Shown here: piece after piece, positions 35,921-50,459 of the stretch
Layout: every line of letters begins with the position of its first letter
Position numbering within the stretch: the first letter of the stretch is position 1
Assembly: GCA_964433325.1 (NCBI GenBank)
Contig: CAYSPY010000005.1
Span: 15,953-79,952 of the forward strand
DNA length: 64,000 nt
Source: an uncultured Candidatus Peribacteria bacterium
GTDB lineage: Bacteria; Patescibacteriota; Gracilibacteria; Peribacterales; Peribacteraceae
Direction: 5' to 3'
The notes under the pieces: model-generated
The model's database searches: none
What the model was told of the DNA's origin: nothing
The model's input: only the letters and a program-made list of their open reading frames with translations
Translations under genes and position numbers: made by a program

Positions 35921-36607
35921 ATGTCTGAATTAGGCGGATCTGAATCGTTCGCACCGGGGGAAGATGGTGGTGGTGTAAGTGAAGCAGCACGCGAACAAGC
36001 GGCACAAAGGTTTGCAGCCAGCCAACAAGCTGCGGCCCAACAGCAAAAAGATGAAAAGAAAGCGAAGAAACGCGATGACGGAGTTGCGCAGATGATTGTT
36101 CAGTTCCTTAGCGATTTACAACGAACACACTTAGCAACACTCATTGCCCGCTTAATCGCACGCGATTGTCCGTCGACGTTTGTCCTCGCAATCTTGTCGC
36201 TCATTAATGATGGATGCAAAGCTGCAGTGGAAGACTATTTGCGCGAAAAGCAGATCGACCCAGCGTCGACAGCGGTTGACCATGCACTTATCCCAACCGA
36301 TGGTGCTCTCACAGATATTGCGAACGAGCAGCTTGCTGCATGGATTGTACGCATGGACCTGACACTCCAGACCGATCAAGATAATGTTCTAAAGGCGCTG
36401 ATTGTTGATGACCAGAATATCGATGGCACAGTGCTTCAGCTGACCTCCTTTGTGTTACAGGAATTTTTGAAGACACATGGAAAAGAAGTTCCCTTTGAGC
36501 AATTGCAGCAGCTTGCTGCGGGTGTACTTCAAACTCTCTTTACGCCTCACATGCATGCACGCATGCAGAATAGACTGAGTGATGAAAAAGAAAATGATGA
36601 GGAATAG
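35921..36607 (+). CDS. Hypothetical protein (228 aa; Gln/Ala-rich N-terminus, helical body, acidic tail)
   Basis: Long ORF with coding-like composition. No family recognised. Confidence 0.6.
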   Translation: MSELGGSESFAPGEDGGGVSEAAREQAAQRFAASQQAAAQQQKDEKKAKKRDDGVAQMIVQFLSDLQRTHLATLIARLIARDCPSTFVLAILSLINDGCKAAVEDYLREKQIDPASTAVDHALIPTDGALTDIANEQLAAWIVRMDLTLQTDQDNVLKALIVDDQNIDGTVLQLTSFVLQEFLKTHGKEVPFEQLQQLAAGVLQTLFTPHMHARMQNRLSDEKENDEE

Positions 36608-36792: not shown

Positions 36793-38607
36793 TTACCTCT
36801 TTAACACACTCAAAAACGCTTCCTGGCTCAAATTCACTTTGCCCATCTGTTTCATACGCTTCTTCCCCTTCTTCTGCTTATCCAGCAGTTTATTCTTACG
36901 TGAGACGTCACCTCCGTACAAATACCCCGTCACATCTTTGCGCATAGCTCCAATTGTTTCACGTGCGACAACCTTGCCACCAATCGCTGCTTGAATCGAG
37001 ATTTCAAACATTGCACGGGGAATCGACTCTTTTAGTTTTTTACAGACAATTTCCCCGACCGCATGTGCTTCGCTGCGGTGCACAATAGTGGAAAGTGCTT
37101 CTGCAGGTTCACCAAGCAGCAGAATCTGTAACTTCACCAAATCCCCTGCTTTGTACCCCAGTGGTTCATAGCTCATCGAGCCATACCCTTCTGTTGACGA
37201 TTTCAGTTTATCGAAGAAGTCGAGCACGATTGCCTGGAGCGGCACATCAAACCGAAGCAGCGATGTGCCCGCATCCAGATATTCCAGCGTGTGATAAACC
37301 CCACGACGCTCCTGCACCATTGTCATGACGGTCCCTACATCTTCACTGCGACACACCACTTCCAACTGAACCCATGGTTCACGCACTTCGTCGATGTAGG
37401 TTGGGTCTGGGAAGTCCGCTGGGTTACTGATGCGAGCAACATTCGGCTCATCGTGTTTAAGCAGACTAGAGCGAACAATGCTCGCTGCCTGCTTAACAGT
37501 GAGTTTTACTTCGTACATTACGCTCGGCGCGGTAACGATCAGGTCACAGTTATACTCACGCTCCAATCGTTCTTGGATAATGTCTAAGTGTAGGAGGCCC
37601 AAGAATCCACAGCGAAACCCGTTTCCGAGTGCGGCGTTGCGTTCGGGCTCGATGCTGAGCGCTGCATCATTGAGCGAGAGTTTCTCGAGTGCATCACGCA
37701 GATCGGGGTACTGATCGGCTTCGCTTGGGTACAAACCCGCGAACACCATCGGCTGAACCTGCTTATAGCCAGGCAGTGGCGCTAAATCCGGCCGAGAACC
37801 AACGGTATCACCCACCCGCACCTGTCGGACATCCTTCAAACCCGTAACGATGTACCCAATCTGACCTTCTTCGAGTGCGTCATCGGGAATAAATTTCGGC
37901 GAGAAGAACCCAACCTCGAGGAGTGGGAATTGCGTTTGAGTTCCAAGGAAGTGCGCATTCATCCCCTTCTTCAACTTCCCTTCCATCACGCGCACGTATG
38001 CAACTACTCCACGATACGGATCGACTGCGGCATCAAAAATAAGGGCGCGCGTATTTCCTTCTACCTTTGGACGATTTGGCGCAGGAATGCGCTCGATGAC
38101 TGCCTGCAATACTTCGTCTACTCCCCTACCATCTTTCGCGGAAATCTTGAGGATATCCTCTTTTTTACACCCAAGAAGCTTTACAACTTCCTCGCTCACA
38201 CGTTCGGGGTCTGCCGCGGGGAGGTCAATTTTATTCAGAACCGGGATAATCGTTAAATCATGTTCCATTGCCATCATCAGCACTGCGAGGGTTTGCGCTT
38301 GAATGCCCTGTGACGCATCGATGAGCAATACCGCCCCTTCGCATGCTGCAAGTGATCGGCTTACTTCGTAGCGAAAGTCGGTGTGGCCAGGTGTATCAAT
38401 CAGGTTGAACTGCACGCCTTTGTATTCCATGCGTACCGGTGTCAGCTTGATGGTAATGCCGCGTTCGCGTTCCAACTCCATCATGTCGAGGGTCTGTTCT
38501 TTCATTTCGCGCTTTTGCAGCGTTCCAGTCATCTCAATCATACGATCGGACAAGGTCGACTTGCCATGATCGATATGCGCGATGATGCAAAAATTGCGAA
38601 TGTCCAT
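36793..38607 (-). CDS. lepA: Elongation factor 4 (LepA)
   Basis: MDIRNFCIIAHIDHGKSTLSDR.., DTPGHTDF, NKIDL, and the LepA-specific C-terminal domain (..GKKRMKQMGKVNLSQEAF..). Start trimmed to the ATG at 38607. Confidence 0.95.
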   Translation of the reverse strand: MDIRNFCIIAHIDHGKSTLSDRMIEMTGTLQKREMKEQTLDMMELERERGITIKLTPVRMEYKGVQFNLIDTPGHTDFRYEVSRSLAACEGAVLLIDASQGIQAQTLAVLMMAMEHDLTIIPVLNKIDLPAADPERVSEEVVKLLGCKKEDILKISAKDGRGVDEVLQAVIERIPAPNRPKVEGNTRALIFDAAVDPYRGVVAYVRVMEGKLKKGMNAHFLGTQTQFPLLEVGFFSPKFIPDDALEEGQIGYIVTGLKDVRQVRVGDTVGSRPDLAPLPGYKQVQPMVFAGLYPSEADQYPDLRDALEKLSLNDAALSIEPERNAALGNGFRCGFLGLLHLDIIQERLEREYNCDLIVTAPSVMYEVKLTVKQAASIVRSSLLKHDEPNVARISNPADFPDPTYIDEVREPWVQLEVVCRSEDVGTVMTMVQERRGVYHTLEYLDAGTSLLRFDVPLQAIVLDFFDKLKSSTEGYGSMSYEPLGYKAGDLVKLQILLLGEPAEALSTIVHRSEAHAVGEIVCKKLKESIPRAMFEISIQAAIGGKVVARETIGAMRKDVTGYLYGGDVSRKNKLLDKQKKGKKRMKQMGKVNLSQEAFLSVLKR

Positions 38608-38681
38608 GCCGGAGCATCCTAGTGAAAAACAGCTGATAATGCCAGAACCAGCCTCCTTTTTGTACTTTTGAGAACATCCAC

Positions 38682-41579
38682 CTATTTTCGACTGCCTTTC
38701 ATCGTTTCGACTGACGGAGCAATAGTTACAGCAGCTTTGGGGTGCATACGACTCCACTCCAAAAAATTCATCTGGGACGTCCCCCCGACATCCGCAACAG
38801 CCTGAATTTCGTGTTTAAGCCCAGCAATTTCTCGTGCGGTCTGGTATCGATGTACACGAACAATCCACTGTGAAGGATCTGGCCCTTTACATTCAATACA
38901 GGTCATCGTGAGAATATTCAGACGGTAATGTGACCGCTTGTCCCACGCAGGCAGCACCTCTTGCAACAGCACAATATCTGCATGACCCGCAGCTTGTTCT
39001 TGTTGCAGCGGAGCCTGGAAAGCTTTCTGTAGCAGAATATATGGCCATTCATCGGGCATCTTATGGTCGCGGAAATCGCGAACCGCTTCGGGGTCTATCT
39101 GGAGCGACGCATATAGATGCTGACGAGGGACGGGGAACATTTGGGCCTCTACAGGTAAGACCTTTTTATAAGGTGAGACCGTTTCAGATTCCTGTCGCAC
39201 TGCATCGGTAAATCGGTCGCGGATCTTCATCATTTCCTCTCTAGTTACTTCCTGCCCCGTCGCAATGCGCTGACGAAGTTCAGCAAACAACAAGTTAATG
39301 TCATGATCCGGCGGCAGAGCTAATGCAGCAGCTTCTGCTGCCGCCATCAAGGAACGCTTATAAAAATGTGAGCGCATGTCGACAATCTTCCCATCTGGTG
39401 TAAAAAGAGAGGAGAACAGCACATTTTTCACATCGTGTGTGATTTTTTCATGCTTCACTAAGCTTGTCATATTACGTGCGAGCACGGCGCGTTCAGCCTT
39501 GCCTTCTGTCCTTGCCTGCAAAATATCGTCACGTTCGGCTAAGCGTGTAATTTCGGCTGCAATTCCCTTCTGTGCTTTTGATGTGAGTGTCGAATGATCT
39601 TTTTCCCCAATCCATTCCTTCTTGTTATAAATACCCAGATGACGAAATACAGCGGTATCTCGTGCAATTTTATCAGTCATTGTGCGGTACGTTTTCCACG
39701 CAGCGACCAATTGAACATCTTCAGGATTTTTGGATGAACTAAAGGAATCAATATATGCCTTAGCCTTTCCCTGGGACGTGGAACGATCATCTTCCATCCG
39801 TTTCAGCGCGCTATCGGGTGACTCATCGATATCGTCAGCGGTTGCCCAATGGAGTAAATCGAGAGACTTCGCATCAACTAAGACGTCACGAGCCTCCAAC
39901 ATCGCCCCGATTTCTCTTTCCAACTGAGCCGCAAACTGAACATTCGCCGCATACATAAATGCCTGACGATCGGACCATGCACCTGTATCCGCCTTTTCCA
40001 ACTGAAACAACTTGCGTGCAAGTGGATTCCATTCGACCGCAATCGCGTGATCCACCTGCGCATTCCAATCGCTCATGCCATTCATTTTTTCGCGTGCCAA
40101 TGATGGCCGCGATCCCTTTCTGGATCGGAGGGTAAGTAATTGCTGCGATAAATACGAGAACGCGTCACGCTCTGGGTGTACCTGCATGCCGGGAATTCCT
40201 ACTTCACCAAGAAGGAATTTAGAACTATCCAGAATACTTCCACCCGATGTGACATCGAGAATATCATTCGCTGCACCTTTTACCGGACCGTCAGGAATAG
40301 ATTCGTCGATATTGGTCACAAGACGATCAATGAGATGTGATAGTCCGAATGCAATCAGCAATGCTGCCGTAAATTGAATAACCGGATTTTTGGGCAGACG
40401 TGCCAAACTTGCTAAACGTGTGCGTGAAAGAATGTTTGCAGACATCTCAAGCATGGCGCCGCTCGCAGCACTTGTTGCCATGTACGATGCAAACATCATG
40501 CTCGCTTTCAGTTTATTATCACTCTGGTGGACGTACATCATGTAGAGCATCACGGTGACCGGGCTTTCCACTGCGAACATATTCTTCCAAAATTCCCTAC
40601 CGACTGGTGATTTGTCCACACTCCGTAAAACCGCAGACAACGCAGGGGCTTTGGATCCAATCATCTTGCTTGCACCCTCATACCCCGCGAGCATTTTTGC
40701 ACGAAGTGAAGAATCCAATGAGCGCATCCATTCGGGTGCACGGACAACAGACTTGCCGAATTTAAGAGTTTCCCCACCTTCTTCCGCCACTTCCTGAGCT
40801 ACAATACCCAAATAGAGCAGAGCTTTTGACGGTTCTTTTTCGGGCTTTTTACGTACCGCCCCTTCGTACACGCGGCGCTGCATTAAAAAGGACCCAATAG
40901 TTCTGAGGGCATTTGCACGATCTTCTGCAGTTAGTCCCTTTTCCCAGCCGACAGTAGGGTACAGCTCTGCATCACGCATATTGAGCAGCGATAGATTGAA
41001 AACGCTATCGATCAACTGATATTGGCGCATCTGGAGGGATCGATACTTCATTTGCAAGTCAGGTGCATCACCCGGCGCTTCTGGCAACGGAGCAGCCAGT
41101 GCTTCTACAACCGACGCAAACCCTTCCTGCGACCCGGAAATGCCCAATTCTTTTTCGAGCACGGGTAAAAATTTTGCAGCTTCAGGATCTTTCATCAGCG
41201 TTGAAAGTGTTGTTCTAGCAGTCTCCGTACAATCACGTTCATACACATCAAGCTCTGTAATCAGAGTCTCTGCAACCGAATCAATGAGGGACATCTCCTC
41301 TGCAGAAAATGTTAGCATGAACTTCTCAGTTCGATCAGTAAACAATGTGACATTTTGCTGTAGCACTCTCTGGCGTTCCTGTAATGCCTCATCTGCTCCT
41401 TCGGGAAGCATAAAAAGAGGATGCTGTTCGTACACAAGAACAGAATGAAGACGATCAATTTTCCCAGTTAATGCCGCTTCCTTTTGCTCTTTTAGTGTAG
41501 TGAGCGCTTTGCGCTCGCTCTCGAACTCTCCGAAAGTCCGGGTGCGGGGTGCGCCGGCGTTTGGTTTTTCGGATGCCAT
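38682..41579 (-). CDS. Large ORFan protein (965 aa), mostly helical, with a hydrophobic cluster around residues 335-416
   Basis: Uninterrupted 2.9-kb ORF, 12 nt after the upstream ORF. Hydrophobic segments are VTVMLYMMYV, MMFASYMATSAASGAMLEM and VIQFTAALLIAFGLSHLI. No catalytic or NTP-binding motif recognised. Confidence 0.8.
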   Translation of the reverse strand: MASEKPNAGAPRTRTFGEFESERKALTTLKEQKEAALTGKIDRLHSVLVYEQHPLFMLPEGADEALQERQRVLQQNVTLFTDRTEKFMLTFSAEEMSLIDSVAETLITELDVYERDCTETARTTLSTLMKDPEAAKFLPVLEKELGISGSQEGFASVVEALAAPLPEAPGDAPDLQMKYRSLQMRQYQLIDSVFNLSLLNMRDAELYPTVGWEKGLTAEDRANALRTIGSFLMQRRVYEGAVRKKPEKEPSKALLYLGIVAQEVAEEGGETLKFGKSVVRAPEWMRSLDSSLRAKMLAGYEGASKMIGSKAPALSAVLRSVDKSPVGREFWKNMFAVESPVTVMLYMMYVHQSDNKLKASMMFASYMATSAASGAMLEMSANILSRTRLASLARLPKNPVIQFTAALLIAFGLSHLIDRLVTNIDESIPDGPVKGAANDILDVTSGGSILDSSKFLLGEVGIPGMQVHPERDAFSYLSQQLLTLRSRKGSRPSLAREKMNGMSDWNAQVDHAIAVEWNPLARKLFQLEKADTGAWSDRQAFMYAANVQFAAQLEREIGAMLEARDVLVDAKSLDLLHWATADDIDESPDSALKRMEDDRSTSQGKAKAYIDSFSSSKNPEDVQLVAAWKTYRTMTDKIARDTAVFRHLGIYNKKEWIGEKDHSTLTSKAQKGIAAEITRLAERDDILQARTEGKAERAVLARNMTSLVKHEKITHDVKNVLFSSLFTPDGKIVDMRSHFYKRSLMAAAEAAALALPPDHDINLLFAELRQRIATGQEVTREEMMKIRDRFTDAVRQESETVSPYKKVLPVEAQMFPVPRQHLYASLQIDPEAVRDFRDHKMPDEWPYILLQKAFQAPLQQEQAAGHADIVLLQEVLPAWDKRSHYRLNILTMTCIECKGPDPSQWIVRVHRYQTAREIAGLKHEIQAVADVGGTSQMNFLEWSRMHPKAAVTIAPSVETMKGSRK

Positions 41580-41591
41580 AGAGTTGTATCG

Positions 41592-43862
41592 TTATTTTTT
41601 ACCTTTCACACTGGAGTTTGGGTCAGATCCTGGTGTTTTGTTAGGATCACCAGTTGTTGGGTCTACATTTGCATCAACTCCTGCTTGGGCACCAGCACCA
41701 ACAGTAGCATTAGGGCTCGCATCTCCTACTGTTTTGGCAGCACGGCGCTGCAACGCTTCAACGTGACTGACGGCCTTCGCGATATCGGCATCGTTATACC
41801 CGGCACCCTTCAAAGCTTTACGAAGGGCATCCGAGTCTTCCGTCGCCGGGCCAAGAATTCGGGCAACGTCACGAATATCGCTATATCTGGTCTTAAGAGC
41901 CTTTGCCATGTTCGATAATTCACGAGCAGGAACCGACTGAACAATCGCTTTTGCATTACGAACCATACGACCACCTTCAAGTGGCCAATGGAAACGACGA
42001 CCGAGACGATCATATTCACCCAAAATTTTTGTTACCTCTTGCTGAGCGGCCATAATTTTCTCGTCCGTAACTCCCATCGGCAAATTAAACTTTGTACGAA
42101 TCTCCGAAATTCCCATTTTGCTAAACTTCTCCAATGCTGTGACGTTCATGGTTGTATACCCGCGAATCGCGAGTGACGTCCCTGTTACTGCAACGCCGGC
42201 TACTCCGCTGATCGCAAGAATCGACATTGGAATTCCGAGTTCGGGGAAGTTCGTGACAAACGATACCCAACGATTCCACCAATGACCCAAGGCATCGACA
42301 CCGGATTCTGCCAAGTATTCACGCACGTTCATGAGCTCACGCTGGAACTCTTCGTTGTACCCGAGTTCTTTCAGTTCCTTTTCGACTGTTTCCGTATCAC
42401 TAGTAGCTAGGTTCACGAGCCTGCGCATAACGCGCAGCTGTAACTCAATTGCCAATTTAGATTCACCGTATTTATCCAGAAGTGCCACGGCTTTGTACGC
42501 AAGTAGCAAATCCCCACCTCTCGTTTCCATCAGGTAATACATATCAAATGCATCACGTGCACTCATTTTCTTGCTGACAATTAACTCATTCAACTTCGCT
42601 GTGATGAGCTTATTCGTTGCATCCTCGGGTTCCATGCTCATAAATGTGACACGCGACAAACGGTCGACCGTCTCCTGCTTAGACACACCGTCACATACAC
42701 CCATAATCATGCGCTTTTGTGATTCGTTAAAGTTTTGGATAAAGGCAGGAAGGCGCTCGATACTCATCTTATCTGCCTCAAAACCGCGGAAAAACTTAAT
42801 CACTTCCGCTGCATCTTTCCGAAAGACTCCACGCTCTTCTTCGGTTCCGCCACTCAATTTTTCCAAAGGAGCAAGCATCACCTCAGCCATTCGGTCTGGC
42901 AGCATGTCTTTGTCCAAAAAGAGATTCTTGGCAAAGCTACGCATGTCGGGCAAGTTTCCGTTGAGCAGCCCTTTGGCATTCACTGCAACTTCCTCCACGA
43001 GTGTTCCCAGGACAGAACCTTGCGCACAGCAATCGAGTGCTTCGGCAATGGTCATGTTAGAGATCTTCTTATCTTTCGCATTCAAATCTGCATATTGCTG
43101 AATCGTATCTTGGTACTTAGCCATATAGCCGGCAAGAAACCGAACAGAATCGATTGTTTCTTGGGGCCAAGGTGCGCCATCGGGCATTGCAAACCCTGCG
43201 GCTTCCAGTAAACGGGTACATGGCTCGGCATTCGCACCTGCATTAACGCATGGAAGCAAATAATCCATACTTAAACGTAAACGAACTGCTGCCATCACAA
43301 TTTCAGTTGTCTGAGGAGCAAGCTCACGCGGAGAATCCTTCAAACCTGTAGCTTTCTGAACGTCATATTGTAGTGGGAGCATTTTCTCGGTGACACGGAC
43401 CGATTGCTCTTCGATCTCACGCGTTTTCACGTATTTAGCCAAATATTCAGGGAGGGGAGAACCTGAAGGCTTTCTCCCTTTATGCATATGTTCATAAATA
43501 TCACGCTCATCAACGTACTTTGCAACTGTCCGTAGAACAGTTGCCTGCTGTACTGGGGAAAGGGCCATTTTTTTATCCACAAAGGCTAGCGGCGCAAGGA
43601 GCCCCTTCGCTGTTTGCATCCGCATCTCAGAAAGAGCCATATACCTGCGGGTCAATTCAAATTGAAGGACATCACCTTTGGAAACAGATGCTTGAGGAAG
43701 TGAAAGATCTGCTCGTACCAAATCCATCATCTGTCGCCAGCTCTCTTTATCTGGGACATCCAGTGCATCGGCAACGTCCGAAGAGCGCTGCACGAATGCC
43801 GGGAGAACTTCCGGTTGCTTTGGCCGTTCGACACTGGATTTTGGTTTTTCTGGAGGAGCCAT
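41592..43862 (-). CDS. Large ORFan protein (756 aa), helical, with a bilobed hydrophobic segment around residues 528-566
   Basis: Uninterrupted 2.3-kb ORF. WWNRWVSFVTNFPELGIPMSILAISGVAGVAVTGTSLAI is flanked by long charged helical regions. The tail is Gly/Ala/Asp/Pro-rich and basic. Confidence 0.8.
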   Translation of the reverse strand: MAPPEKPKSSVERPKQPEVLPAFVQRSSDVADALDVPDKESWRQMMDLVRADLSLPQASVSKGDVLQFELTRRYMALSEMRMQTAKGLLAPLAFVDKKMALSPVQQATVLRTVAKYVDERDIYEHMHKGRKPSGSPLPEYLAKYVKTREIEEQSVRVTEKMLPLQYDVQKATGLKDSPRELAPQTTEIVMAAVRLRLSMDYLLPCVNAGANAEPCTRLLEAAGFAMPDGAPWPQETIDSVRFLAGYMAKYQDTIQQYADLNAKDKKISNMTIAEALDCCAQGSVLGTLVEEVAVNAKGLLNGNLPDMRSFAKNLFLDKDMLPDRMAEVMLAPLEKLSGGTEEERGVFRKDAAEVIKFFRGFEADKMSIERLPAFIQNFNESQKRMIMGVCDGVSKQETVDRLSRVTFMSMEPEDATNKLITAKLNELIVSKKMSARDAFDMYYLMETRGGDLLLAYKAVALLDKYGESKLAIELQLRVMRRLVNLATSDTETVEKELKELGYNEEFQRELMNVREYLAESGVDALGHWWNRWVSFVTNFPELGIPMSILAISGVAGVAVTGTSLAIRGYTTMNVTALEKFSKMGISEIRTKFNLPMGVTDEKIMAAQQEVTKILGEYDRLGRRFHWPLEGGRMVRNAKAIVQSVPARELSNMAKALKTRYSDIRDVARILGPATEDSDALRKALKGAGYNDADIAKAVSHVEALQRRAAKTVGDASPNATVGAGAQAGVDANVDPTTGDPNKTPGSDPNSSVKGKK

Positions 43863-43873
43863 AAGATGAAAGG

Positions 43874-44524
43874 TTATCCGCCCATTTCGAGCCCCTTAAG
43901 AATCATATCAGCCTCCTGCAGACTTGGGATCTCGGTAGGAACCGGCGCTGCGGGGGGTGGGGCAGGCATTTCTGGAATATTCATTCCTTCAAGTGCATTT
44001 CCAATCCCCTCTTTGGCTGTTTCTGCGGCTCCTGTCGCCATATCTGCAGCCTGTCCGGCCACCTCGCCTGCGGCCTCTGTTGCCTTGGATACCGCATTGC
44101 CAGTCATGTAGGACGTAAGCCAATCACGAAGCCTACCAACAACAACTGTCCCCGCACCCGTGTAATACATGGCGGCAACACCCGCGAGTGTTAGTACGAC
44201 ACCAGTCGCAATGTACGGATGTGCTTCAATAGCCCCCCATACACGTCGTGGGACATACGTAACGTAATCCCACAGAGTCCACCTCTTTTTCGCTTCTGCC
44301 TCTTGGCGATATAGAGCCAAATCCTCAATAAGATTATCAACGTCGCCATTAAGAGTCGGGTCATACTCTTTCAAGCTACGAACCAGCTTCTCCTTTTCAT
44401 CGGTCACCTGCACTAGTTCGTCTAACCGTTCCAGTTGGTATCCTCGCTCATTCAAACGGTCGAGGTATCCCTGCATCTTATCTGGTGCGCGTACGAATGG
44501 CCGCTCAAATACGGATTTGATCAT
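43874..44524 (-). CDS. ORFan protein (216 aa) with central hydrophobic hairpin
   Basis: Coiled-coil-like N-terminus, YIATGVVLTLAGVAAMYYTGAGTVVVG, then an Ala/Gly/Glu-rich and Pro-rich tail. It starts 2 nt after the upstream stop. Confidence 0.7.
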   Translation of the reverse strand: MIKSVFERPFVRAPDKMQGYLDRLNERGYQLERLDELVQVTDEKEKLVRSLKEYDPTLNGDVDNLIEDLALYRQEAEAKKRWTLWDYVTYVPRRVWGAIEAHPYIATGVVLTLAGVAAMYYTGAGTVVVGRLRDWLTSYMTGNAVSKATEAAGEVAGQAADMATGAAETAKEGIGNALEGMNIPEMPAPPPAAPVPTEIPSLQEADMILKGLEMGG

Positions 44525-44526
44525 AC

Positions 44527-44934
44527 TTATACGTGGGTAGCAGAAAGATTGATGGTCAGGAGCTCATGACGAATAACCGTGAGCGTTGCGAGCGCTTCAA
44601 TATCTTCGTCTTTGGAAATCTCACTAAGAAGTGTGGCAATGAATGCAGCAACTCCTCGTGCACCTATCGTGAAATACAATTCCTTCTGCACATCTGGTCC
44701 AATGTGTTCAAAAGAAATTTTATCGGGAGATTCTCCTGCCGAAATTTGATCGAGAATCGTTTTTACACCCGGGTGGAACTTAAAATCCGCGAGCGAGATA
44801 CGCATGCGTATCTGCCGCAAGGATTCATAACAGTCGAGTGTTTCACTTTGAACAGTCCACCCCTCACGGAGAGACTCCGGAACCGCTTGAAACAAAGATT
44901 GTTCGTCCGCGGTTAGAAAAATAGTGTTATTCAT
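44527..44934 (-). CDS. Small acidic ORFan protein (135 aa), first of four ORFan genes
   Basis: Soluble-looking and acidic. It starts 14 nt after the pyruvyl-transferase gene. No family recognised. Confidence 0.65.
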   Translation of the reverse strand: MNNTIFLTADEQSLFQAVPESLREGWTVQSETLDCYESLRQIRMRISLADFKFHPGVKTILDQISAGESPDKISFEHIGPDVQKELYFTIGARGVAAFIATLLSEISKDEDIEALATLTVIRHELLTINLSATHV

Positions 44935-44948
44935 TGCTTCCCATCATA

Positions 44949-45932
44949 TCACGAATGCACATCAGACTCAATTAGACGCAGTGCAGAAGAAAGACTAAGC
45001 CGCCCATGTTCAACCATGGAACAGAGTTGGGGCACATTTGCCTTTCCACTGTTAATCAGCTGTTGCAACTCATACATCTTATCTCCTTTACCCTGTGGGA
45101 CGATGTCTATTTCGATTCCAGAAGCAAGAGCTGCAAGTGCACCATGGAAACGCTGCGATAACACAATCGCACTCGTGCCGACTCCCTTTAATAACTCTCG
45201 GAGTGTTCTGGCGGGAATAATTGTTGCAGGGAGGCCAAGCTCACGCTGCAGACGATTAGCGATAGCCTGCTCACCCGCATCATCTGGCTGCATCAAGAGA
45301 ATTTGTAGATGATGGATATATGGACGCATGCGAAGCAGTGAAATTGCACTCTGCATAAAGGCATCAGAGGAATTTGCGCGTGGAATTAATGTGCATACAT
45401 TTTTTGTTCCATGAACGACTTTTTGCTTTTCCATAACGGAAAATACTGGGTCAAATGTTTGAATAATTTCTGTACTCAATCCCCAAGAAGCTACCCGCTC
45501 ATACGATGCAGTGTCTCGTACGGATATATACCGAGCGTGACGTGCAACAAAGCGTGCAAGACGCTCCCCTACCTTTGTTTTATATGGCCCCATCCCTTGG
45601 AATGCGAGAAAGACTGGCTTACGAAGAAAGAATGCAAGACCAGCGTGCCAAGCCCATAAAAAACAGGCTTTTACGGATTCTACATCAGTAAAAAGTGATC
45701 CACCGCCAAATACCACCGCATCACAGCCGCGGTACGCAGTGATCGTCTTACGCCATCCTCCTTGCCTCAATGAATGTAGGCCAAAGGGTAAGCGTGGCAA
45801 TTCATGCTGCGCTTTAGGAGATGCAGAAAGCACAGTCCAGGTAACTTCCGGGAAAGCATCCAAGAAATAATCGCGCAGAGCTTCGTCTCCTAAGTTATCG
45901 ACGCCGTAGTTCCCGATCAGCACACATTTCAT
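44949..45932 (-). CDS. Polysaccharide pyruvyl transferase family protein (CsaB-like)
   Basis: MKCVLIGNYGVDNLGDEALRDYFLDAF.., ..VVFGGGSLFTD.., ..SQRFHGALAA.. match the PS_pyruv_trans family to which CsaB belongs. Confidence 0.8.
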   Translation of the reverse strand: MKCVLIGNYGVDNLGDEALRDYFLDAFPEVTWTVLSASPKAQHELPRLPFGLHSLRQGGWRKTITAYRGCDAVVFGGGSLFTDVESVKACFLWAWHAGLAFFLRKPVFLAFQGMGPYKTKVGERLARFVARHARYISVRDTASYERVASWGLSTEIIQTFDPVFSVMEKQKVVHGTKNVCTLIPRANSSDAFMQSAISLLRMRPYIHHLQILLMQPDDAGEQAIANRLQRELGLPATIIPARTLRELLKGVGTSAIVLSQRFHGALAALASGIEIDIVPQGKGDKMYELQQLINSGKANVPQLCSMVEHGRLSLSSALRLIESDVHS

Positions 45933-46001: not shown

Positions 46002-46535
46002 TTACTCAGCTGGCTTTTCCTCTGTTGGCGCTTCGGCCGTTGTTGCCTCTGCAACTGGAGCTTCGACAGTCTGAACCACTGCTGGAGCCTCTTCTACTGG
46101 AGCTTCGATGATCTGTGCCTCCTGCTCGGCTACCTGTGCCTCTGTAACAGGCTCTGCAACTGCAACCGCGAATTCACCTTCTGTCGTAAAGCGCTCGCTT
46201 AGGCGGGCAGATTTACCACTGCGCCCACGGAGGAAGAATAGTTTTGCGCGGCGAACGTTGGCAACCTTCTTCACTTCTACCTTTTCAATGGATGGGGAGT
46301 GCAAGGGGAAGACTTTCTCGACACCAATACCAGACACAACACGGCGAACCGTAAAGGATGCATCTGTTGGAACATGGCCGTTATGCACGGAAATAACCAA
46401 CCCTTCGAAAATTTGCACACGCTCTTTGCCACCTTCCTGGATTTTCTCGTGCACACGCACGGTATAGCCAGGTTTCACAGAAGGAACCGGGCGGGCAAAC
46501 GGGGCAGCCAATGCATGCAAAATGTGCTTGGTCAT
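46002..46535 (-). CDS. rplS: 50S ribosomal protein L19 with an acidic C-terminal extension of about 55 aa
   Basis: PGYTVRVHEKIQEGGKERVQIFEGLVISVHNG...FTVRRVVSGIGVEKVFPLHSPSIEKVEV..VRRAKLFFLR is a canonical L19. The tail is EGEFAVAVAEPVTEAQVAEQEAQIIEAPVEEAPAVV... Confidence 0.93.
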   Translation of the reverse strand: MTKHILHALAAPFARPVPSVKPGYTVRVHEKIQEGGKERVQIFEGLVISVHNGHVPTDASFTVRRVVSGIGVEKVFPLHSPSIEKVEVKKVANVRRAKLFFLRGRSGKSARLSERFTTEGEFAVAVAEPVTEAQVAEQEAQIIEAPVEEAPAVVQTVEAPVAEATTAEAPTEEKPAE

Positions 46536-46693: not shown

Positions 46694-47284
46694 CTACTTC
46701 CCCTTTGCCTCATCAATCTTGTCCTGAATGGTATTAAGAACAATCAAATGGCGTGGATCATTGAGGATTTCCTGGACAAACCTGTCTTTAAGACTCAAGC
46801 GATAGAGGAAGTCTGCCTCCGAGAAAATCGAGTATTTTACGTATTTAAGGTTAGGATCCTGTGCCAAAAGTGCCTCCAGCACCTCTTTTTTCACATCACC
46901 AACAAGCAAAAGATCTACTTTGCTCTCGGTTCCACAGAGGTTTCCAGCCAAGAGGACCAATTCTACTCCATTAATAGCCTTTAAACTGGCTACGAATGGG
47001 CTTTCACCCTGTACAGCCTTGCTAAAGAGATTCCGTAAATCAGCGTAAAGCGGGAAATCGACATCAATACGGTAATACTTCTTGCGGTTCTTGTGGCGTG
47101 CCTTAACCAGTCCTACTCGGCGGAGGTTTTCGAGTTCGCGGCGGATGGAGTTGATTTGTTCGTTCAGCAGACGGGTAAGTTCACGAATGAAATATTCCTC
47201 CTCGGGGTGGAGAAGAAAAGTGGAAAGTAATTTGACCCGGGTCTGTGAGCTAAACAGAGCTTTAAGAACTGATGCGGATGACAT
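46694..47284 (-). CDS. Winged-helix (ArsR/MarR-like) transcriptional regulator with C-terminal domain
   Basis: ..LFSSQTRVKLLSTFLLHPEEEYFIRELTRLLNEQINSIRRELENLRRVGLVKARHKNRKKYYRI.. is a classical wHTH. It is divergent from the TrbL-like gene. Confidence 0.7.
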   Translation of the reverse strand: MSSASVLKALFSSQTRVKLLSTFLLHPEEEYFIRELTRLLNEQINSIRRELENLRRVGLVKARHKNRKKYYRIDVDFPLYADLRNLFSKAVQGESPFVASLKAINGVELVLLAGNLCGTESKVDLLLVGDVKKEVLEALLAQDPNLKYVKYSIFSEADFLYRLSLKDRFVQEILNDPRHLIVLNTIQDKIDEAKGK

Positions 47285-47538: not shown

Positions 47539-49302
47539 ATGTATTCACGCACGACCTCCTTCGTTCGATCAGCCCTCGGCACTGTCCTCTTGTTGGCTCC
47601 GATGGCAGCTCATGCCCAGGCAAATTTCAATGGAAATATTCAACAGACGTTCGGTCTCATCATTCAAACTGCGATTGAGACACTTAACCTTTTAACGTGG
47701 GTCGTGTTTATTTTCTTAAACCAACTCCTCGATCCATTGGTCATTTTCAACAATGGTGCAATGTCCCCCATGTTGAATGAGATTTGGCAGCTCTCACGAA
47801 ATATTATGAACGTCGCATTCGCCCTCGTATTGATTGGCGCTGCGATCTATACAGTGGTTACTGCAAAAAAAGACTTCGTGGCATCGAACATGAAAAAGTT
47901 CGTCATGGCCGTGGTGCTCGTCAACTTCTCGTGGTTTGTCCCAATGGTTATCTTGGACGTTGCGAACGTTGCAGCCACAACAGTGTTTAACCTCCCCTCT
48001 GTATTAGGACAAAATAACGTCTGTAAGTTTCGAACAGCAACGAAGCCACCAGGAACTGCAGCGGCTAACTGCCAGGCAGTCCCTGCTCCAAACCCTGTCC
48101 CCCCCGGGCATATTCCACAATTCGACTGTGACTGCATCATGGCAGTTGATGCAGCATTTTTCGTCTCACAAAATCAGCTAGGACAATTCCCCGCTGCTCA
48201 AGGCTGGGCATGTTACTTGGGACAAACAATGTGTGTGCATCTGCAGCCATTGAATGGTAATAACATTGCACCGCATTCCTACATTCTAAATGGATTAATT
48301 CTGAATCATGCACGCTTAGCTGGTGTTGCATCGTTGCCCCCTGCGGTGAATGGACCCGCCGTTTCTGCGCTCATCATGTACTTTTTGCAAATGGGAGTAC
48401 TCCTTGTTATCCATATCGCATTATTCTTCCCACTTGCAGCGATGGCACTCGCCTTTGCCATTCGCATTCCTGTGCTCTGGTTTACGATTGCCTTCATGCC
48501 GTTCTGGATTCTAACACTGCTACCACTTGGTAGTATTTTTGGCGATTACCCAAAGCAACTAGGTGACTATTTCTTAAAAGCAGCATTCCTCCCCGCCATT
48601 TGTGGCGTACCCCTCACGATCGGATTTATTATGATCAACGCAGGGCAGCAAGCCGCAACATTCGGCAATTTGCAGCAAATTGGATTCCGTCTTACGAATA
48701 ACATCAGCGATTTCTTTGAATTGCTCTGGCTGATTATGTGCTTGGGTATTTTCTATATGGGCACGTTCTCTGTGCTCAAGAAATACGGTGGCGTGATGGC
48801 AAAGGGTGCCGAAGCGATTGAAGGTGCTGGTAAGAGCTTGGGGTCAATGGCAATGCAAGCACCATTACATGCGATTCCAATGCCGATTCCAGGAGGAGGA
48901 AGTCTTCTGAACTTCATGAAAACTCATAGCCCTGCCGCCCTCCAAGCACAGTTCAATGCAGGCGTAGCAAACAATACGCCATTGTCACAAATGTTCTCAC
49001 CGCAGAATCAGCAGAATCAGCAAACATTACAAGCTACAGCTCAGGCTAATAAGAATAATGTCGCTCACATGACAACACTCGACACACATATACAAGCGTT
49101 GACGGCTGCCGTGACACAAGCCGACAAAGACAGGGCAATGCAAAACATAAGCACTCACATGGGCGGTGTGGCAATAAACGCCGGAAATGTGAAGACGCAG
49201 CTACAGGCATACACTCAGCAGCTCAATCTTGCGGGTGCAGGAACAGGTGCGGCTAAAACTGAATTTGGCAATTTGCAAGCAAGAGTAAACACTTTGCCGT
49301 AA
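47539..49302 (+). CDS. Signal-peptide polytopic membrane protein with TrbL/VirB6-like topology and a Gln/Asn/Ala-rich tail
   Basis: Signal peptide ..LLLAPMAAHAQA and about 7 hydrophobic helices. A loop of about 110 aa carries 7 Cys, and the C-terminal tail of about 170 aa is low-complexity or coiled coil. The family assignment rests on topology only. Confidence 0.8.
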   Translation: MYSRTTSFVRSALGTVLLLAPMAAHAQANFNGNIQQTFGLIIQTAIETLNLLTWVVFIFLNQLLDPLVIFNNGAMSPMLNEIWQLSRNIMNVAFALVLIGAAIYTVVTAKKDFVASNMKKFVMAVVLVNFSWFVPMVILDVANVAATTVFNLPSVLGQNNVCKFRTATKPPGTAAANCQAVPAPNPVPPGHIPQFDCDCIMAVDAAFFVSQNQLGQFPAAQGWACYLGQTMCVHLQPLNGNNIAPHSYILNGLILNHARLAGVASLPPAVNGPAVSALIMYFLQMGVLLVIHIALFFPLAAMALAFAIRIPVLWFTIAFMPFWILTLLPLGSIFGDYPKQLGDYFLKAAFLPAICGVPLTIGFIMINAGQQAATFGNLQQIGFRLTNNISDFFELLWLIMCLGIFYMGTFSVLKKYGGVMAKGAEAIEGAGKSLGSMAMQAPLHAIPMPIPGGGSLLNFMKTHSPAALQAQFNAGVANNTPLSQMFSPQNQQNQQTLQATAQANKNNVAHMTTLDTHIQALTAAVTQADKDRAMQNISTHMGGVAINAGNVKTQLQAYTQQLNLAGAGTGAAKTEFGNLQARVNTLP

Positions 49303-49310
49303 AACCTTAC

Positions 49311-50459
49311 ATGTCATCTTCTTCTCCAAAGCAGGCTTTCACCGTCTCCGGCTCACCCTTGGAGCAAGAACAGACGAATGCACGACAACAGCGAAGCAGG
49401 CTGGAGGCAAATTTATCGACAACTCCTATTAATCAGGCTCGTTTCTTAGGTACGCACCCTCAAAAGGCAGCAGAGATTGTCCGCCTACGTACCATGAGTG
49501 CCCCTCAGCGCATGCAAGAAGTACGCGACACTTATGCAGAATCTTTAAACGAATCGCTGCCTAGGCTACGAAGCGGTTTTGCAGAAGCAAACCGCAATGC
49601 GCAGAATGCAGACCCAAGTGATACACAAGAATCACCACTCGAGCATATTAACGCCATTGCTCAAGCAATCATTAAACCTCCAAAAGGTGCTGCACCCGCA
49701 GGTACACACCGATATTTGACGGAGTATGACCTAAACTACCGACAAATCGAGGCTGACCAAAGCTACCTTCGCACATTGGCTGGCACACGTAGTGACTTGC
49801 AGGCCGACCTTTTGCAGCTCGACCGTGCGCTGGGGGAATTGATGTATAAAGACCCCCGTTACGGTATTCGCCAACTGGAAAAGCGCCACGAGGAAGATAA
49901 TGTGGATGGAAAGATTTATAAAGCTCTACAGGGCGGTCTATTCGTTGCAGCAGCATTTGCAGCTGTGCTTGGGCTCGGCGTAGGCATTGCTCAACGAAAA
50001 CTAAGTGCCGCGACGCTTATGTATGCCGGTGTTGCTCTACTCGCCTACCCTGGCGTATGGGATCAGCTGTTTTCAGGAAAGGATAAGATCATGGTAAAAG
50101 AAATTAACGGATCACTGAATGACCCTCTCTTTAAATCAATCCGCAAGAAATACAACGTACAAGGGCGTGTATGGGCTAATTACGCACGAAACACCTTACA
50201 GGAACCATCTTCAACCAAGTCACTGATCTCAGCCCTCAAATCGAACAATCTACACTCCAAGGGGTCCCCCGAACTCGAACAGCAGATTAAAGAGTACGTA
50301 CAATCCATGGGTGGCAGCAAAGATGATAAAGCGAATATGCAACGCATGATTGACGACGAACAGTTCGTTGATTTCGCACAAATCCTTTTAACACTCCACA
50401 ACGAAGATGCGCAGGCGATTGCGTACGATTACATCAAGACAGGCGGTGGCACACTGTAA
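49311..50459 (+). CDS. ORFan protein (382 aa) with central bilobed hydrophobic segment
   Basis: Starts 8 nt after the previous gene. Helical N-terminal domain, then GLFVAAAFAAVLGLGVGIAQRKLSAATLMYAGVALLAYPGVW, then a helical C-terminal domain. Confidence 0.7.
   Translation: MSSSSPKQAFTVSGSPLEQEQTNARQQRSRLEANLSTTPINQARFLGTHPQKAAEIVRLRTMSAPQRMQEVRDTYAESLNESLPRLRSGFAEANRNAQNADPSDTQESPLEHINAIAQAIIKPPKGAAPAGTHRYLTEYDLNYRQIEADQSYLRTLAGTRSDLQADLLQLDRALGELMYKDPRYGIRQLEKRHEEDNVDGKIYKALQGGLFVAAAFAAVLGLGVGIAQRKLSAATLMYAGVALLAYPGVWDQLFSGKDKIMVKEINGSLNDPLFKSIRKKYNVQGRVWANYARNTLQEPSSTKSLISALKSNNLHSKGSPELEQQIKEYVQSMGGSKDDKANMQRMIDDEQFVDFAQILLTLHNEDAQAIAYDYIKTGGGTL

Follow-up and report, generated by a model that had tools for sequence, protein, structure and literature searches.

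A cassette of four genes on the minus strand of a 64,000-nucleotide (nt) stretch of DNA (the window; contig CAYSPY010000005.1) from Candidatus Peribacteria (Peregrinibacteria, candidate phyla radiation (CPR)) represents one version of a self-contained module with three components: a small soluble protein (A), a putative membrane anchor (B) and a giant helical protein, here encoded by two genes (C and D). Because we could assign the module to no known homologue, fold or system, it is undescribed and formally a new kind; a limited literature search likewise found no prior description of it. The module is accessory, and so far restricted to Peribacteria-type (CPR) genomes. We consider that it may form a complex tethered to the membrane, in which a swappable part confers specificity, and that this complex may act in conflict or recognition between organisms, as the pattern of turnover and module shuffling described below suggests; we give this reading a probability of about 0.4.

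The four co-directional open reading frames (ORFs) lie between a gene for a CsaB-like pyruvyl transferase and lepA. Gene A (44527..44934) encodes 135 amino acids (aa) with an isoelectric point (pI) of 4.8, gene B (43874..44524) 216 aa with a pI of 4.7, and genes C (41592..43862) and D (38682..41579) encode 756 and 965 aa, both of near-neutral pI. The gaps are 14 nt between the CsaB-like gene and A, 2 nt between A and B, 11 nt between B and C, and 12 nt between C and D. A first-pass annotation, made from the letters of the sequence, had given this arrangement of four minus-strand ORFs spaced 2–14 nt apart, with coordinates that proved exact, and had correctly called the first product small and acidic. 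It contained neither the three-component unit, nor the polymorphism of the site in presence and type, nor the large size of the A family.

Relatives of the cassette were collected mostly via lepA. A lepA scan covering a single genome from each GTDB species yielded about 70 Candidatus Peribacteria/Peribacteraceae loci (cited by L numbers), with lepA up to 91% identical to that of the window, and the window proteins were searched against these lepA-centred loci by tblastn. The flanking genes for a winged-helix protein, rplS, CsaB and lepA are kept in about 45 loci, and 45 relatives retain both CsaB and lepA. The interval between these two genes varies widely in content. It is empty in 15 of the 45 loci (42–185 nt), while ten carry A and a second gene of about 230–320 aa within 1.2–1.5 kb, a B-family protein in seven of them. 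Nineteen loci hold one giant ORF of 886–2495 aa in an interval of 3.9–8.7 kb, accompanied by A in 16 and by a detected B-family gene in 14. The remaining locus, L005, has four genes in 7.1 kb, encoding 135, 232, 929 and 1041 aa, like the window. In close relatives, the module is absent, cut to A and B, or equipped with different giants.

The order A–B–giant was found at 14 lepA-centred loci and also in L081, L083, L084, L087 and L088, which were found by looking up proteins and scanning metagenomes. In L012 the triad stands between pdxS/pdxT and lepA, without CsaB; in L090 it follows a release-factor gene and precedes sugar-nucleotide genes, with neither CsaB nor lepA. The same order occurs in about 25 genomes and three genomic contexts. 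Because the triad recurs in two contexts other than that of the window, A, B and the giant constitute a self-contained module, in which the C and D genes of the window are a two-gene version of the giant. By the same token, the CsaB-like gene is outside the module, since the module is also found without CsaB (L012 and L090). The genes are conserved as ORFs in relatives, and both giant ORFs of L005 are intact. Proteins identical to window A and to window C are also present in the protein collection, and the sequencing runs SRR14271365 and SRR22388202 contain nearly identical contigs.

The closest relative of the cassette, on the Logan contigs L085 and L086, is 78% identical in A, 68.5% in B, 65% in CsaB and 38% in the first ~300 aa of C. 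Synonymous divergence (dS) is saturated even for this pair, and we used the proportions of nonsynonymous (pN) and synonymous (pS) differences, which are 0.15 versus 0.79 for A and 0.21 versus 0.76 for B. A and B are under purifying selection, with C changing faster. With pN far below pS for A and B, and ORFs conserved in relatives, the four genes are real.

Cassette type does not follow the chromosome. Window A is 25–26% identical to the A proteins of those genomes whose lepA resembles that of the window most (89–91%) and 53–56% identical to those of L009, L054 and L043, where lepA identity is 75–81%. Mantel tests on distance matrices gave a rho of 0.52 (p 0.0005) for A versus B and of 0.12 (p 0.06) for A versus lepA. 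Across the loci, A varies together with B, and both with the type of N-terminal module (N-module) in the giant, but not with the chromosome backbone, and we therefore infer that cassette types are exchanged or anciently polymorphic. The pattern fits homologous recombination in the conserved flanks, by which whole cassettes and modules of the giants would be exchanged, or else long-lived allelic types.

An all-versus-all comparison of the giants revealed two alternative N-modules of about 650–730 aa. One, the C type, is present in the window, L009, L054, L081, L043, L088, L012, L084 and L005; the other, the L030 type, in L030, L067, L035, L062, L046, L056, L048, L087 and L090. Either can be followed by different tails: L087 joins an L030-type N-module to an L009-type tail, L088 a C-type N-module to an L008-type tail, and L081 a C-type N-module to an L031-type tail. 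The giants are thus all-alpha mosaics in which an N-module is joined to interchangeable C-terminal modules. Profile–profile comparison detected no similarity between C-type and L030-type N-modules, nor between D and the L030 type, and a common origin of the two N-modules is therefore unproven. Residues 210–324 of D and 95–209 of C did match (E 0.0025, about 100 columns), a similarity between the two families that is suggestive only.

C is a C-type N-module encoded alone. Over its whole length, the 756-aa protein can be aligned with residues 1 to ~700–740 of the giants of L009, L054, L081, L043, L088 and L012 (29–47% identity). It also matches internal stretches of the giants of L084 and L005, and its end is a disordered tail of low complexity. 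An AlphaFold2 model built with one homologue consists entirely of helices (34 predicted), with poor scores (predicted local distance difference test (pLDDT) 50.5, predicted template-modelling score (pTM) 0.29). Twenty-four positions are invariant across the nine C-type N-modules, and they are mostly Leu, Pro, Gly or Phe, of a structural kind. Since catalytic residues are not conserved in the N-module, the giants are, from their sequences, most likely scaffolds or binders rather than enzymes. The possibility that C is a HEPN RNase was considered for two strings, RDIYEH (residues 120–125) and RLGRRFH (residues 619–625), and rejected, as their Arg and His residues are not conserved in the nine modules.

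D, by comparison, is a rare, variable giant. The one relative that could be detected for it, the fourth protein of L005, is 27% identical over residues 230–798 and emerged from the tblastn search of lepA-centred loci. A word-seeded search of 5.8 billion clusters and a search of GTDB genomes returned no match to D, and the alignment of D with its L005 relative had none in Joint Genome Institute (JGI) metagenomes. The best-conserved region of D in that alignment, residues ~323–421 (40317..40613, minus strand), is moderately hydrophobic and reads KSPVG..FW...ESP.TV.L...Y.H.SD.K.KA ... P.PV...T.ALL.AF. The label ORFan, which the first-pass annotation had attached to all four genes, therefore fits D, with its one relative, and nearly fits C, with about ten, but has to be dropped for A (398 clusters) and B (28 members).

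In the window the giant is thus split into a lone N-module, C, and a separately encoded variable part, D. Every related cassette but one has a single giant ORF at this position, which could suggest that C and D are halves of one gene broken by mutation or by an assembly error. We find such a pseudogene hardly credible: L005 shows the same split, its two ORFs (929 and 1041 aa) are both intact and its fourth protein is homologous to D, which marks the split as a real arrangement rather than an error. Moreover, the low-complexity tail of C lies just past the end of the mutual alignment of C-type N-modules, D has its own ATG 12 nt after the stop codon of C, and both ORFs are long and uninterrupted.

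A is the conserved soluble core component of the module. We identified 31 members of its family in the related loci, and 14 by a word-seeded search; a profile search of 1.84 billion representatives returned 398 clusters (50% identity) at E<=1e-3, of which 314 reached E<=1e-10. Nearly all of the 150 clusters listed are stand-alone proteins of 127–145 aa without domain fusions, making A a single-domain family. Residues E11, E31, R45, G91 and R122 are 94–100% conserved among 136 representatives with a median identity of 33% to window A. AlphaFold2, given 14 sequences, predicted a two-strand hairpin and six helices with good scores (pLDDT 87.5, pTM 0.82). Foldseek found no match for this model in the PDB (best E 0.95, template-modelling score at most 0.26) or in BFVD. 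From PDB sequences the A profile retrieved only noise, and when 65 diverse members were scanned permissively against Pfam, nothing beyond singleton noise emerged. A is thus a conserved, soluble, acidic protein whose predicted fold has no known relative.

B is the membrane-anchor component. An iterated hidden Markov model search over the loci gathered 28 members, whose alignment runs from a variable N-terminus through a coiled-coil-like helix, a basic stretch and a hydrophobic helix to an Ala/Gly/Glu/Pro-rich tail. The basic juxtamembrane stretch, PEKKGLFRRAW...(K/R)HP, closes with a conserved H-P motif, and the C-terminal peptide reads IPSLQEADMILKGLE. The hydrophobic helix is a single segment of ~22–27 aa, located in window B around residues 101–129 (AHPYIATGVVLTLAGVAAMYYTGAGTVVV; 44138..44224, minus strand). 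In most family members it is competent to span the membrane, at roughly -2 to +2 kcal/mol in a simple free-energy sum; these and the other free energies (dG) given here are approximate. Because three to six Lys/Arg residues flank the helix on its N side, compared with none to two on its C side, the positive-inside rule implies a bitopic N-in/C-out protein with a cytoplasmic N-terminal coiled coil and the tail outside. Such a layout – helical cytoplasmic N-domain, basic juxtamembrane stretch, one transmembrane helix and low-complexity linker, sometimes with a small C-terminal domain beyond it – resembles RodZ and anti-sigma bitopic anchors. Unlike these, B has no sequence similarity to the RodZ, anti-sigma or TonB/TolA families; no sigma factor or helix-turn-helix (HTH) partner accompanies it, and A is acidic without a DNA-binding signature. 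No match to B was found among Pfam and PDB sequence profiles.

Seven of the ten cassettes without a giant encode a B with an extra C-terminal globular domain of ~75 aa (YIYGDKIYSMEELPQL...RIFPY.NARVTAEQAL). These are L001 (9128–9952), L006 (8911–9876), L044 (8997–9932), L045 (1466–2377) and L059 (3361–4173), together with L002 and L003. The extra domain has no Pfam match and is unrelated to any segment of the giants.

The other hydrophobic segments do not amount to membrane hairpins. In C, a Gly/Ala/Thr-rich segment picked out by hydropathy (residues 541–566; 42165..42242, minus strand) is preceded by a Trp-rich stretch, spans ~21–26 aa and has a Kyte–Doolittle (KD) value of 1.9 and an approximate dG of +1.5; its counterparts in L054, L084 and L012 are short or contain Asp, Lys, Glu or Arg. 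It may be membrane-associated, though it is no conserved canonical transmembrane helix. D has no 19-residue window with an approximate dG below 2, and only some giants, those of L030, L067, L008 and L072, carry a clearly transmembrane-competent segment. C and D are Cys-poor and lack signal peptides. The hairpins that the first-pass annotation had described in B, C and D thus resolve into one helix in B, a marginal segment in C that is charged in orthologues, and no transmembrane-competent window in D. Its broader suggestion, a candidate undescribed membrane-associated system, stands as far as the genes are linked, have no catalytic domain and include an anchor in B; the specific analogies that it drew do not.

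None of the four genes could be placed in a family with significance by searches of Pfam, NCBIfam, PADLOC and PHROGs, and no Walker A, G1, HExxH or similar motif was seen in their products, bearing out the statement in the first-pass annotation that they contain no catalytic, nucleotide-binding or known-family motif. Unassigned lineage-specific genes are common in CPR genomes. The absence of matches extends to the giants of related loci: 14 of them, totalling about 20,000 aa, have no Pfam domain, and three further ones have no precomputed Pfam hit; profiles of the C and D families retrieved nothing meaningful from the PDB. PADLOC reported only AbiEii, for C, at E 0.0053, with no stretch passing alone, and LmuB at E 0.026, neither of them a significant match to a defence-system model. 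The sub-threshold AbiEii matches lie at residues 416–454 of C (42501–42617) and residues 423–487 of the L009 giant (L009 7098–7292), the region homologous to the match in C, for which the Pfam AbiEii profile gave E 0.0025. They cover only positions 138–204 of the 238 in the profile, its non-catalytic C-terminal helical part, and probably represent noise from helical composition.

In organisational logic the module is closest to polymorphic toxin systems and to VARTIG. Like the Rhs, CDI and LXG polymorphic toxin systems, it combines a conserved N-terminal part with recombining C-terminal modules (seen in L081, L087, L088, L012, L009 and others), has small conserved accessory genes upstream, and shows strain-specific content with types exchanged independently of the chromosome. 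In contrast to those systems, no toxin domain was found in C, D or the 14 related giants with Pfam, or with PDB profiles. Nor does an immunity gene lie downstream, where lepA directly follows the giant here and in related loci; no secretion system is linked, there are no RHS/YD, LXG, PT-TG or filamentous-haemagglutinin repeats here, and the variable parts are helical and 400–1800 aa long, as opposed to a toxin tip of ~100–300 aa. VARTIG of Thermococcales (Makarova et al. 2021) is a lineage-restricted hypervariable module of unknown function, for which a part in conflict or self-nonself discrimination has been proposed (PMC8416519). It shares with our module a large central protein whose C-terminal part is shuffled between genomes, in an organisation like that of polymorphic toxin systems. 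VARTIG has immunoglobulin domains and belongs to archaea, whereas the Peribacteria module is all-alpha with no known domain, adds the soluble A and the anchor B, and occupies a fixed site upstream of lepA.

In the mechanism that we propose, A and the cytoplasmic part of B would together make up a constant base on the inner side of the membrane, on which the conserved N-module of the giant would dock. The shuffled C-terminal modules, represented here by D, would supply a strain-specific surface for binding or recognition. The complex would then act in conflict with, or recognition of, other organisms: the host cell of the presumed symbiont, phages or other Peribacteria. We put forward only tentatively that the module might be a recombination-shuffled recognition or conflict system of episymbiotic CPR Peribacteria, an analogue of polymorphic toxin systems and VARTIG made of new parts. 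With similar reserve, we suggest that A could then serve as the adaptor and B as the anchor, with the interchangeable helical modules of the giant setting the interaction with host, phage or kin.

Several observations weigh against this proposal. Contacts between A, B and the giant are deduced only from linkage and co-variation, and no secretion signal or toxin, immunity, nuclease or ATPase domain was found in the window proteins or related giants. No defence or mobile island can be recognised around the cassette, which has no flanking repeats, integrase or viral copies. Because the loci were mostly found through lepA, fidelity to the site is biased in appearance, and the Mantel test, which used one backbone gene at saturated divergence, is a coarse measure of incongruence. 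As the CsaB-like protein is itself only 40–55% identical between relatives, the divergence may partly be the ordinary fast evolution of non-core CPR genes. Finally, the hydrophobic helix is marginal in the B protein of the window and in its closest type-mates (L009, L054 and L043), which makes membrane anchoring least certain in this very cassette type.

The same features were weighed under other readings. Anti-phage defence or abortive infection, in which B would sense perturbation of the envelope and the cytoplasmic giants would be sensors or effectors, would account for the defence-like turnover, that is, for presence/absence polymorphism and for cassette types decoupled from the backbone. 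It would also suit the combination of a membrane-anchored component with large variable proteins, and the two independent sub-threshold AbiEii matches fall in the same region of C and the L009 giant. We nevertheless regard defence as unlikely: no PADLOC model was significant, the weak AbiEii matches are restricted to the non-catalytic helical part of the profile, and the Rx4-6H strings of C are not conserved. In addition, about 20,000 aa of giants contain no nuclease, ATPase, nucleotidyltransferase (NTase), SIR2/TIR or protease domain, and the neighbouring genes have housekeeping rather than defence functions. A role outside conflict, as a dispensable alpha-helical scaffold tethered to the membrane that organises the envelope or cell shape, perhaps working with CsaB-dependent modification of a cell-wall polymer, would agree with all-alpha giants without catalytic residues, an Ala/Pro-rich tail of the anchor that could span the cell wall, the frequent adjacency of CsaB, and co-directional packing among housekeeping genes with no terminators between. 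Such a role is distinctly unlikely, given that the module is missing in 15 related genomes, reduced to a short form, A plus one gene, in ten and also found without CsaB; shuffling and type exchange are unexpected of a structural housekeeping scaffold. The first-pass annotation had thought of membrane-remodelling scaffolds, an idea that we discarded: no dynamin-like, ESCRT-III/PspA, BAR or flotillin family was detected with Pfam or NCBIfam and no GTPase motif was present, the only sub-threshold matches being FAM92/BAR-like at E 0.014 in the L005 homologue of D and PspC at E 0.17.

Its other analogies, with chaperone/translocator sets and Inc-type effectors, correspond to a reading of A as a chaperone and of B, C and D as secreted effectors or translocators that insert into host membranes, as in the sets of type III and type IV secretion systems (T3SS and T4SS) or chlamydial Inc proteins. 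The resemblance lies in a small acidic protein beside large, fast-evolving helical proteins with hydrophobic segments and no Sec signal, and Peribacteria are regarded as symbionts that devote resources to their cell surface and to large exported proteins (PMC4736985). We consider this reading improbable. The size and pI of A would fit a type III/IV secretion chaperone, but its confidently predicted structure is neither the alpha/beta fold of CesT/SycE class I chaperones nor a TPR fold, and is unlike any secretion chaperone or other structure yet solved; the sole flagellar chaperone among its Foldseek results (5xef; E 3.6, template-modelling score 0.23) is at noise level. The hydrophobic segments are single and marginal, and none of B, C and D has the bilobed hairpin of ~40–60 aa expected of an Inc protein. 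The charge bias of B is that of a resident N-in/C-out membrane protein. Neither the window nor the related loci that we examined contain a T3SS gene, and no secretion-system gene adjoins the module in any context seen.

There is nothing to assign the cassette to a mobile element or prophage. We found no integrase, transposase or viral copies, and no direct repeats flanking the cassette in the window; relatives of A or C were absent from IMG/VR viral contigs, and PHROGs matched none of the four genes. The GC content of the cassette equals that of its flanks and is uniform across the region. Promoter-like sites (14 in the region) are not in excess over shuffled sequence (12.5+/-4.3), and terminator-like sites, no more frequent than in shuffled sequence, separate none of the four genes. 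A sigma-70-like match (44943..44971, minus strand; TTGAGT-17-TATGAT with an extended TG), which lies within the final part of the CsaB-like gene and ends 9 nt before the ATG of A, could be an internal promoter, though without statistical support. The cassette occupies a fixed site directly upstream of lepA, and it is probably transcribed together with its neighbours.

The upstream neighbour (44949..45932, minus strand) encodes a polysaccharide pyruvyl transferase (PF04230, E 2.4e-25) that is CsaB-like but falls below the NCBIfam cut-off for CsaB equivalogs. The protein is 40–55% identical in all relatives irrespective of lepA identity (70–91%), and its gene is itself fast-evolving and may be part of the variable zone. 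It is preceded by rplS (46002–46535, minus strand), whose product, ribosomal protein L19 (177 aa), has an acidic, Ala/Glu/Pro/Thr-rich C-terminal extension of about 55 aa. Beside rplS, a winged-helix-like protein of 196 aa (46694–47284, minus strand) is 94–95% identical in the closest relatives, compared with 89–91% for lepA; it has only sub-threshold Pfam HTH matches and represents a very constrained, unclassified regulator. Divergently from it runs another undescribed, conserved envelope gene pair with no Pfam or NCBIfam match. The first gene (47539–49302, plus strand) encodes a 587-aa protein that crosses the membrane several times, has a signal-like segment at its N-terminus and is conserved in about 39 Peribacteria loci at 29–59% identity. 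The second (49311–50459, plus strand) encodes 382 aa; in the annotated contigs, a partner gene adjoins the first. Downstream of the cassette, lepA (elongation factor 4, EF4; 36793..38607, minus strand) begins at a conserved ATG at 38607 (MDIRNFCIIAHIDHGKST), 74 nt past the stop codon of D; the mechanical ORF call (36793–38757, minus strand) runs on to a GTG at 38757 and thereby overlaps the end of D. Beyond lepA, on the opposite strand, lies a gene for an acidic protein of 228 aa (35921–36607, plus strand), which is conserved at this place in about 60 related loci and belongs to no assigned family.

The Peribacter genome paper reported strain-variable, large extracellular proteins, often rich in Cys, and did not describe the present module (PMC4736985). 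What the window adds is a defined, repeatedly sampled three-component module with the evolutionary signature of interaction or conflict (gain and loss, type exchange and domain shuffling), although none of its parts can be recognised. A is a good target for structure determination because it is compact and conserved (about 400 clusters), with a confident model that matches nothing solved. Much of bacterial diversity belongs to the CPR, whose interactions with other cells are largely unknown. If the module does serve the recognition of host, phage or kin, it would offer a new molecular way into the symbiosis of CPR bacteria and into strain-level diversity among groundwater and soil communities. 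Should it be merely a dispensable scaffold, it would still document a recombination hot spot upstream of lepA in Peribacteria.

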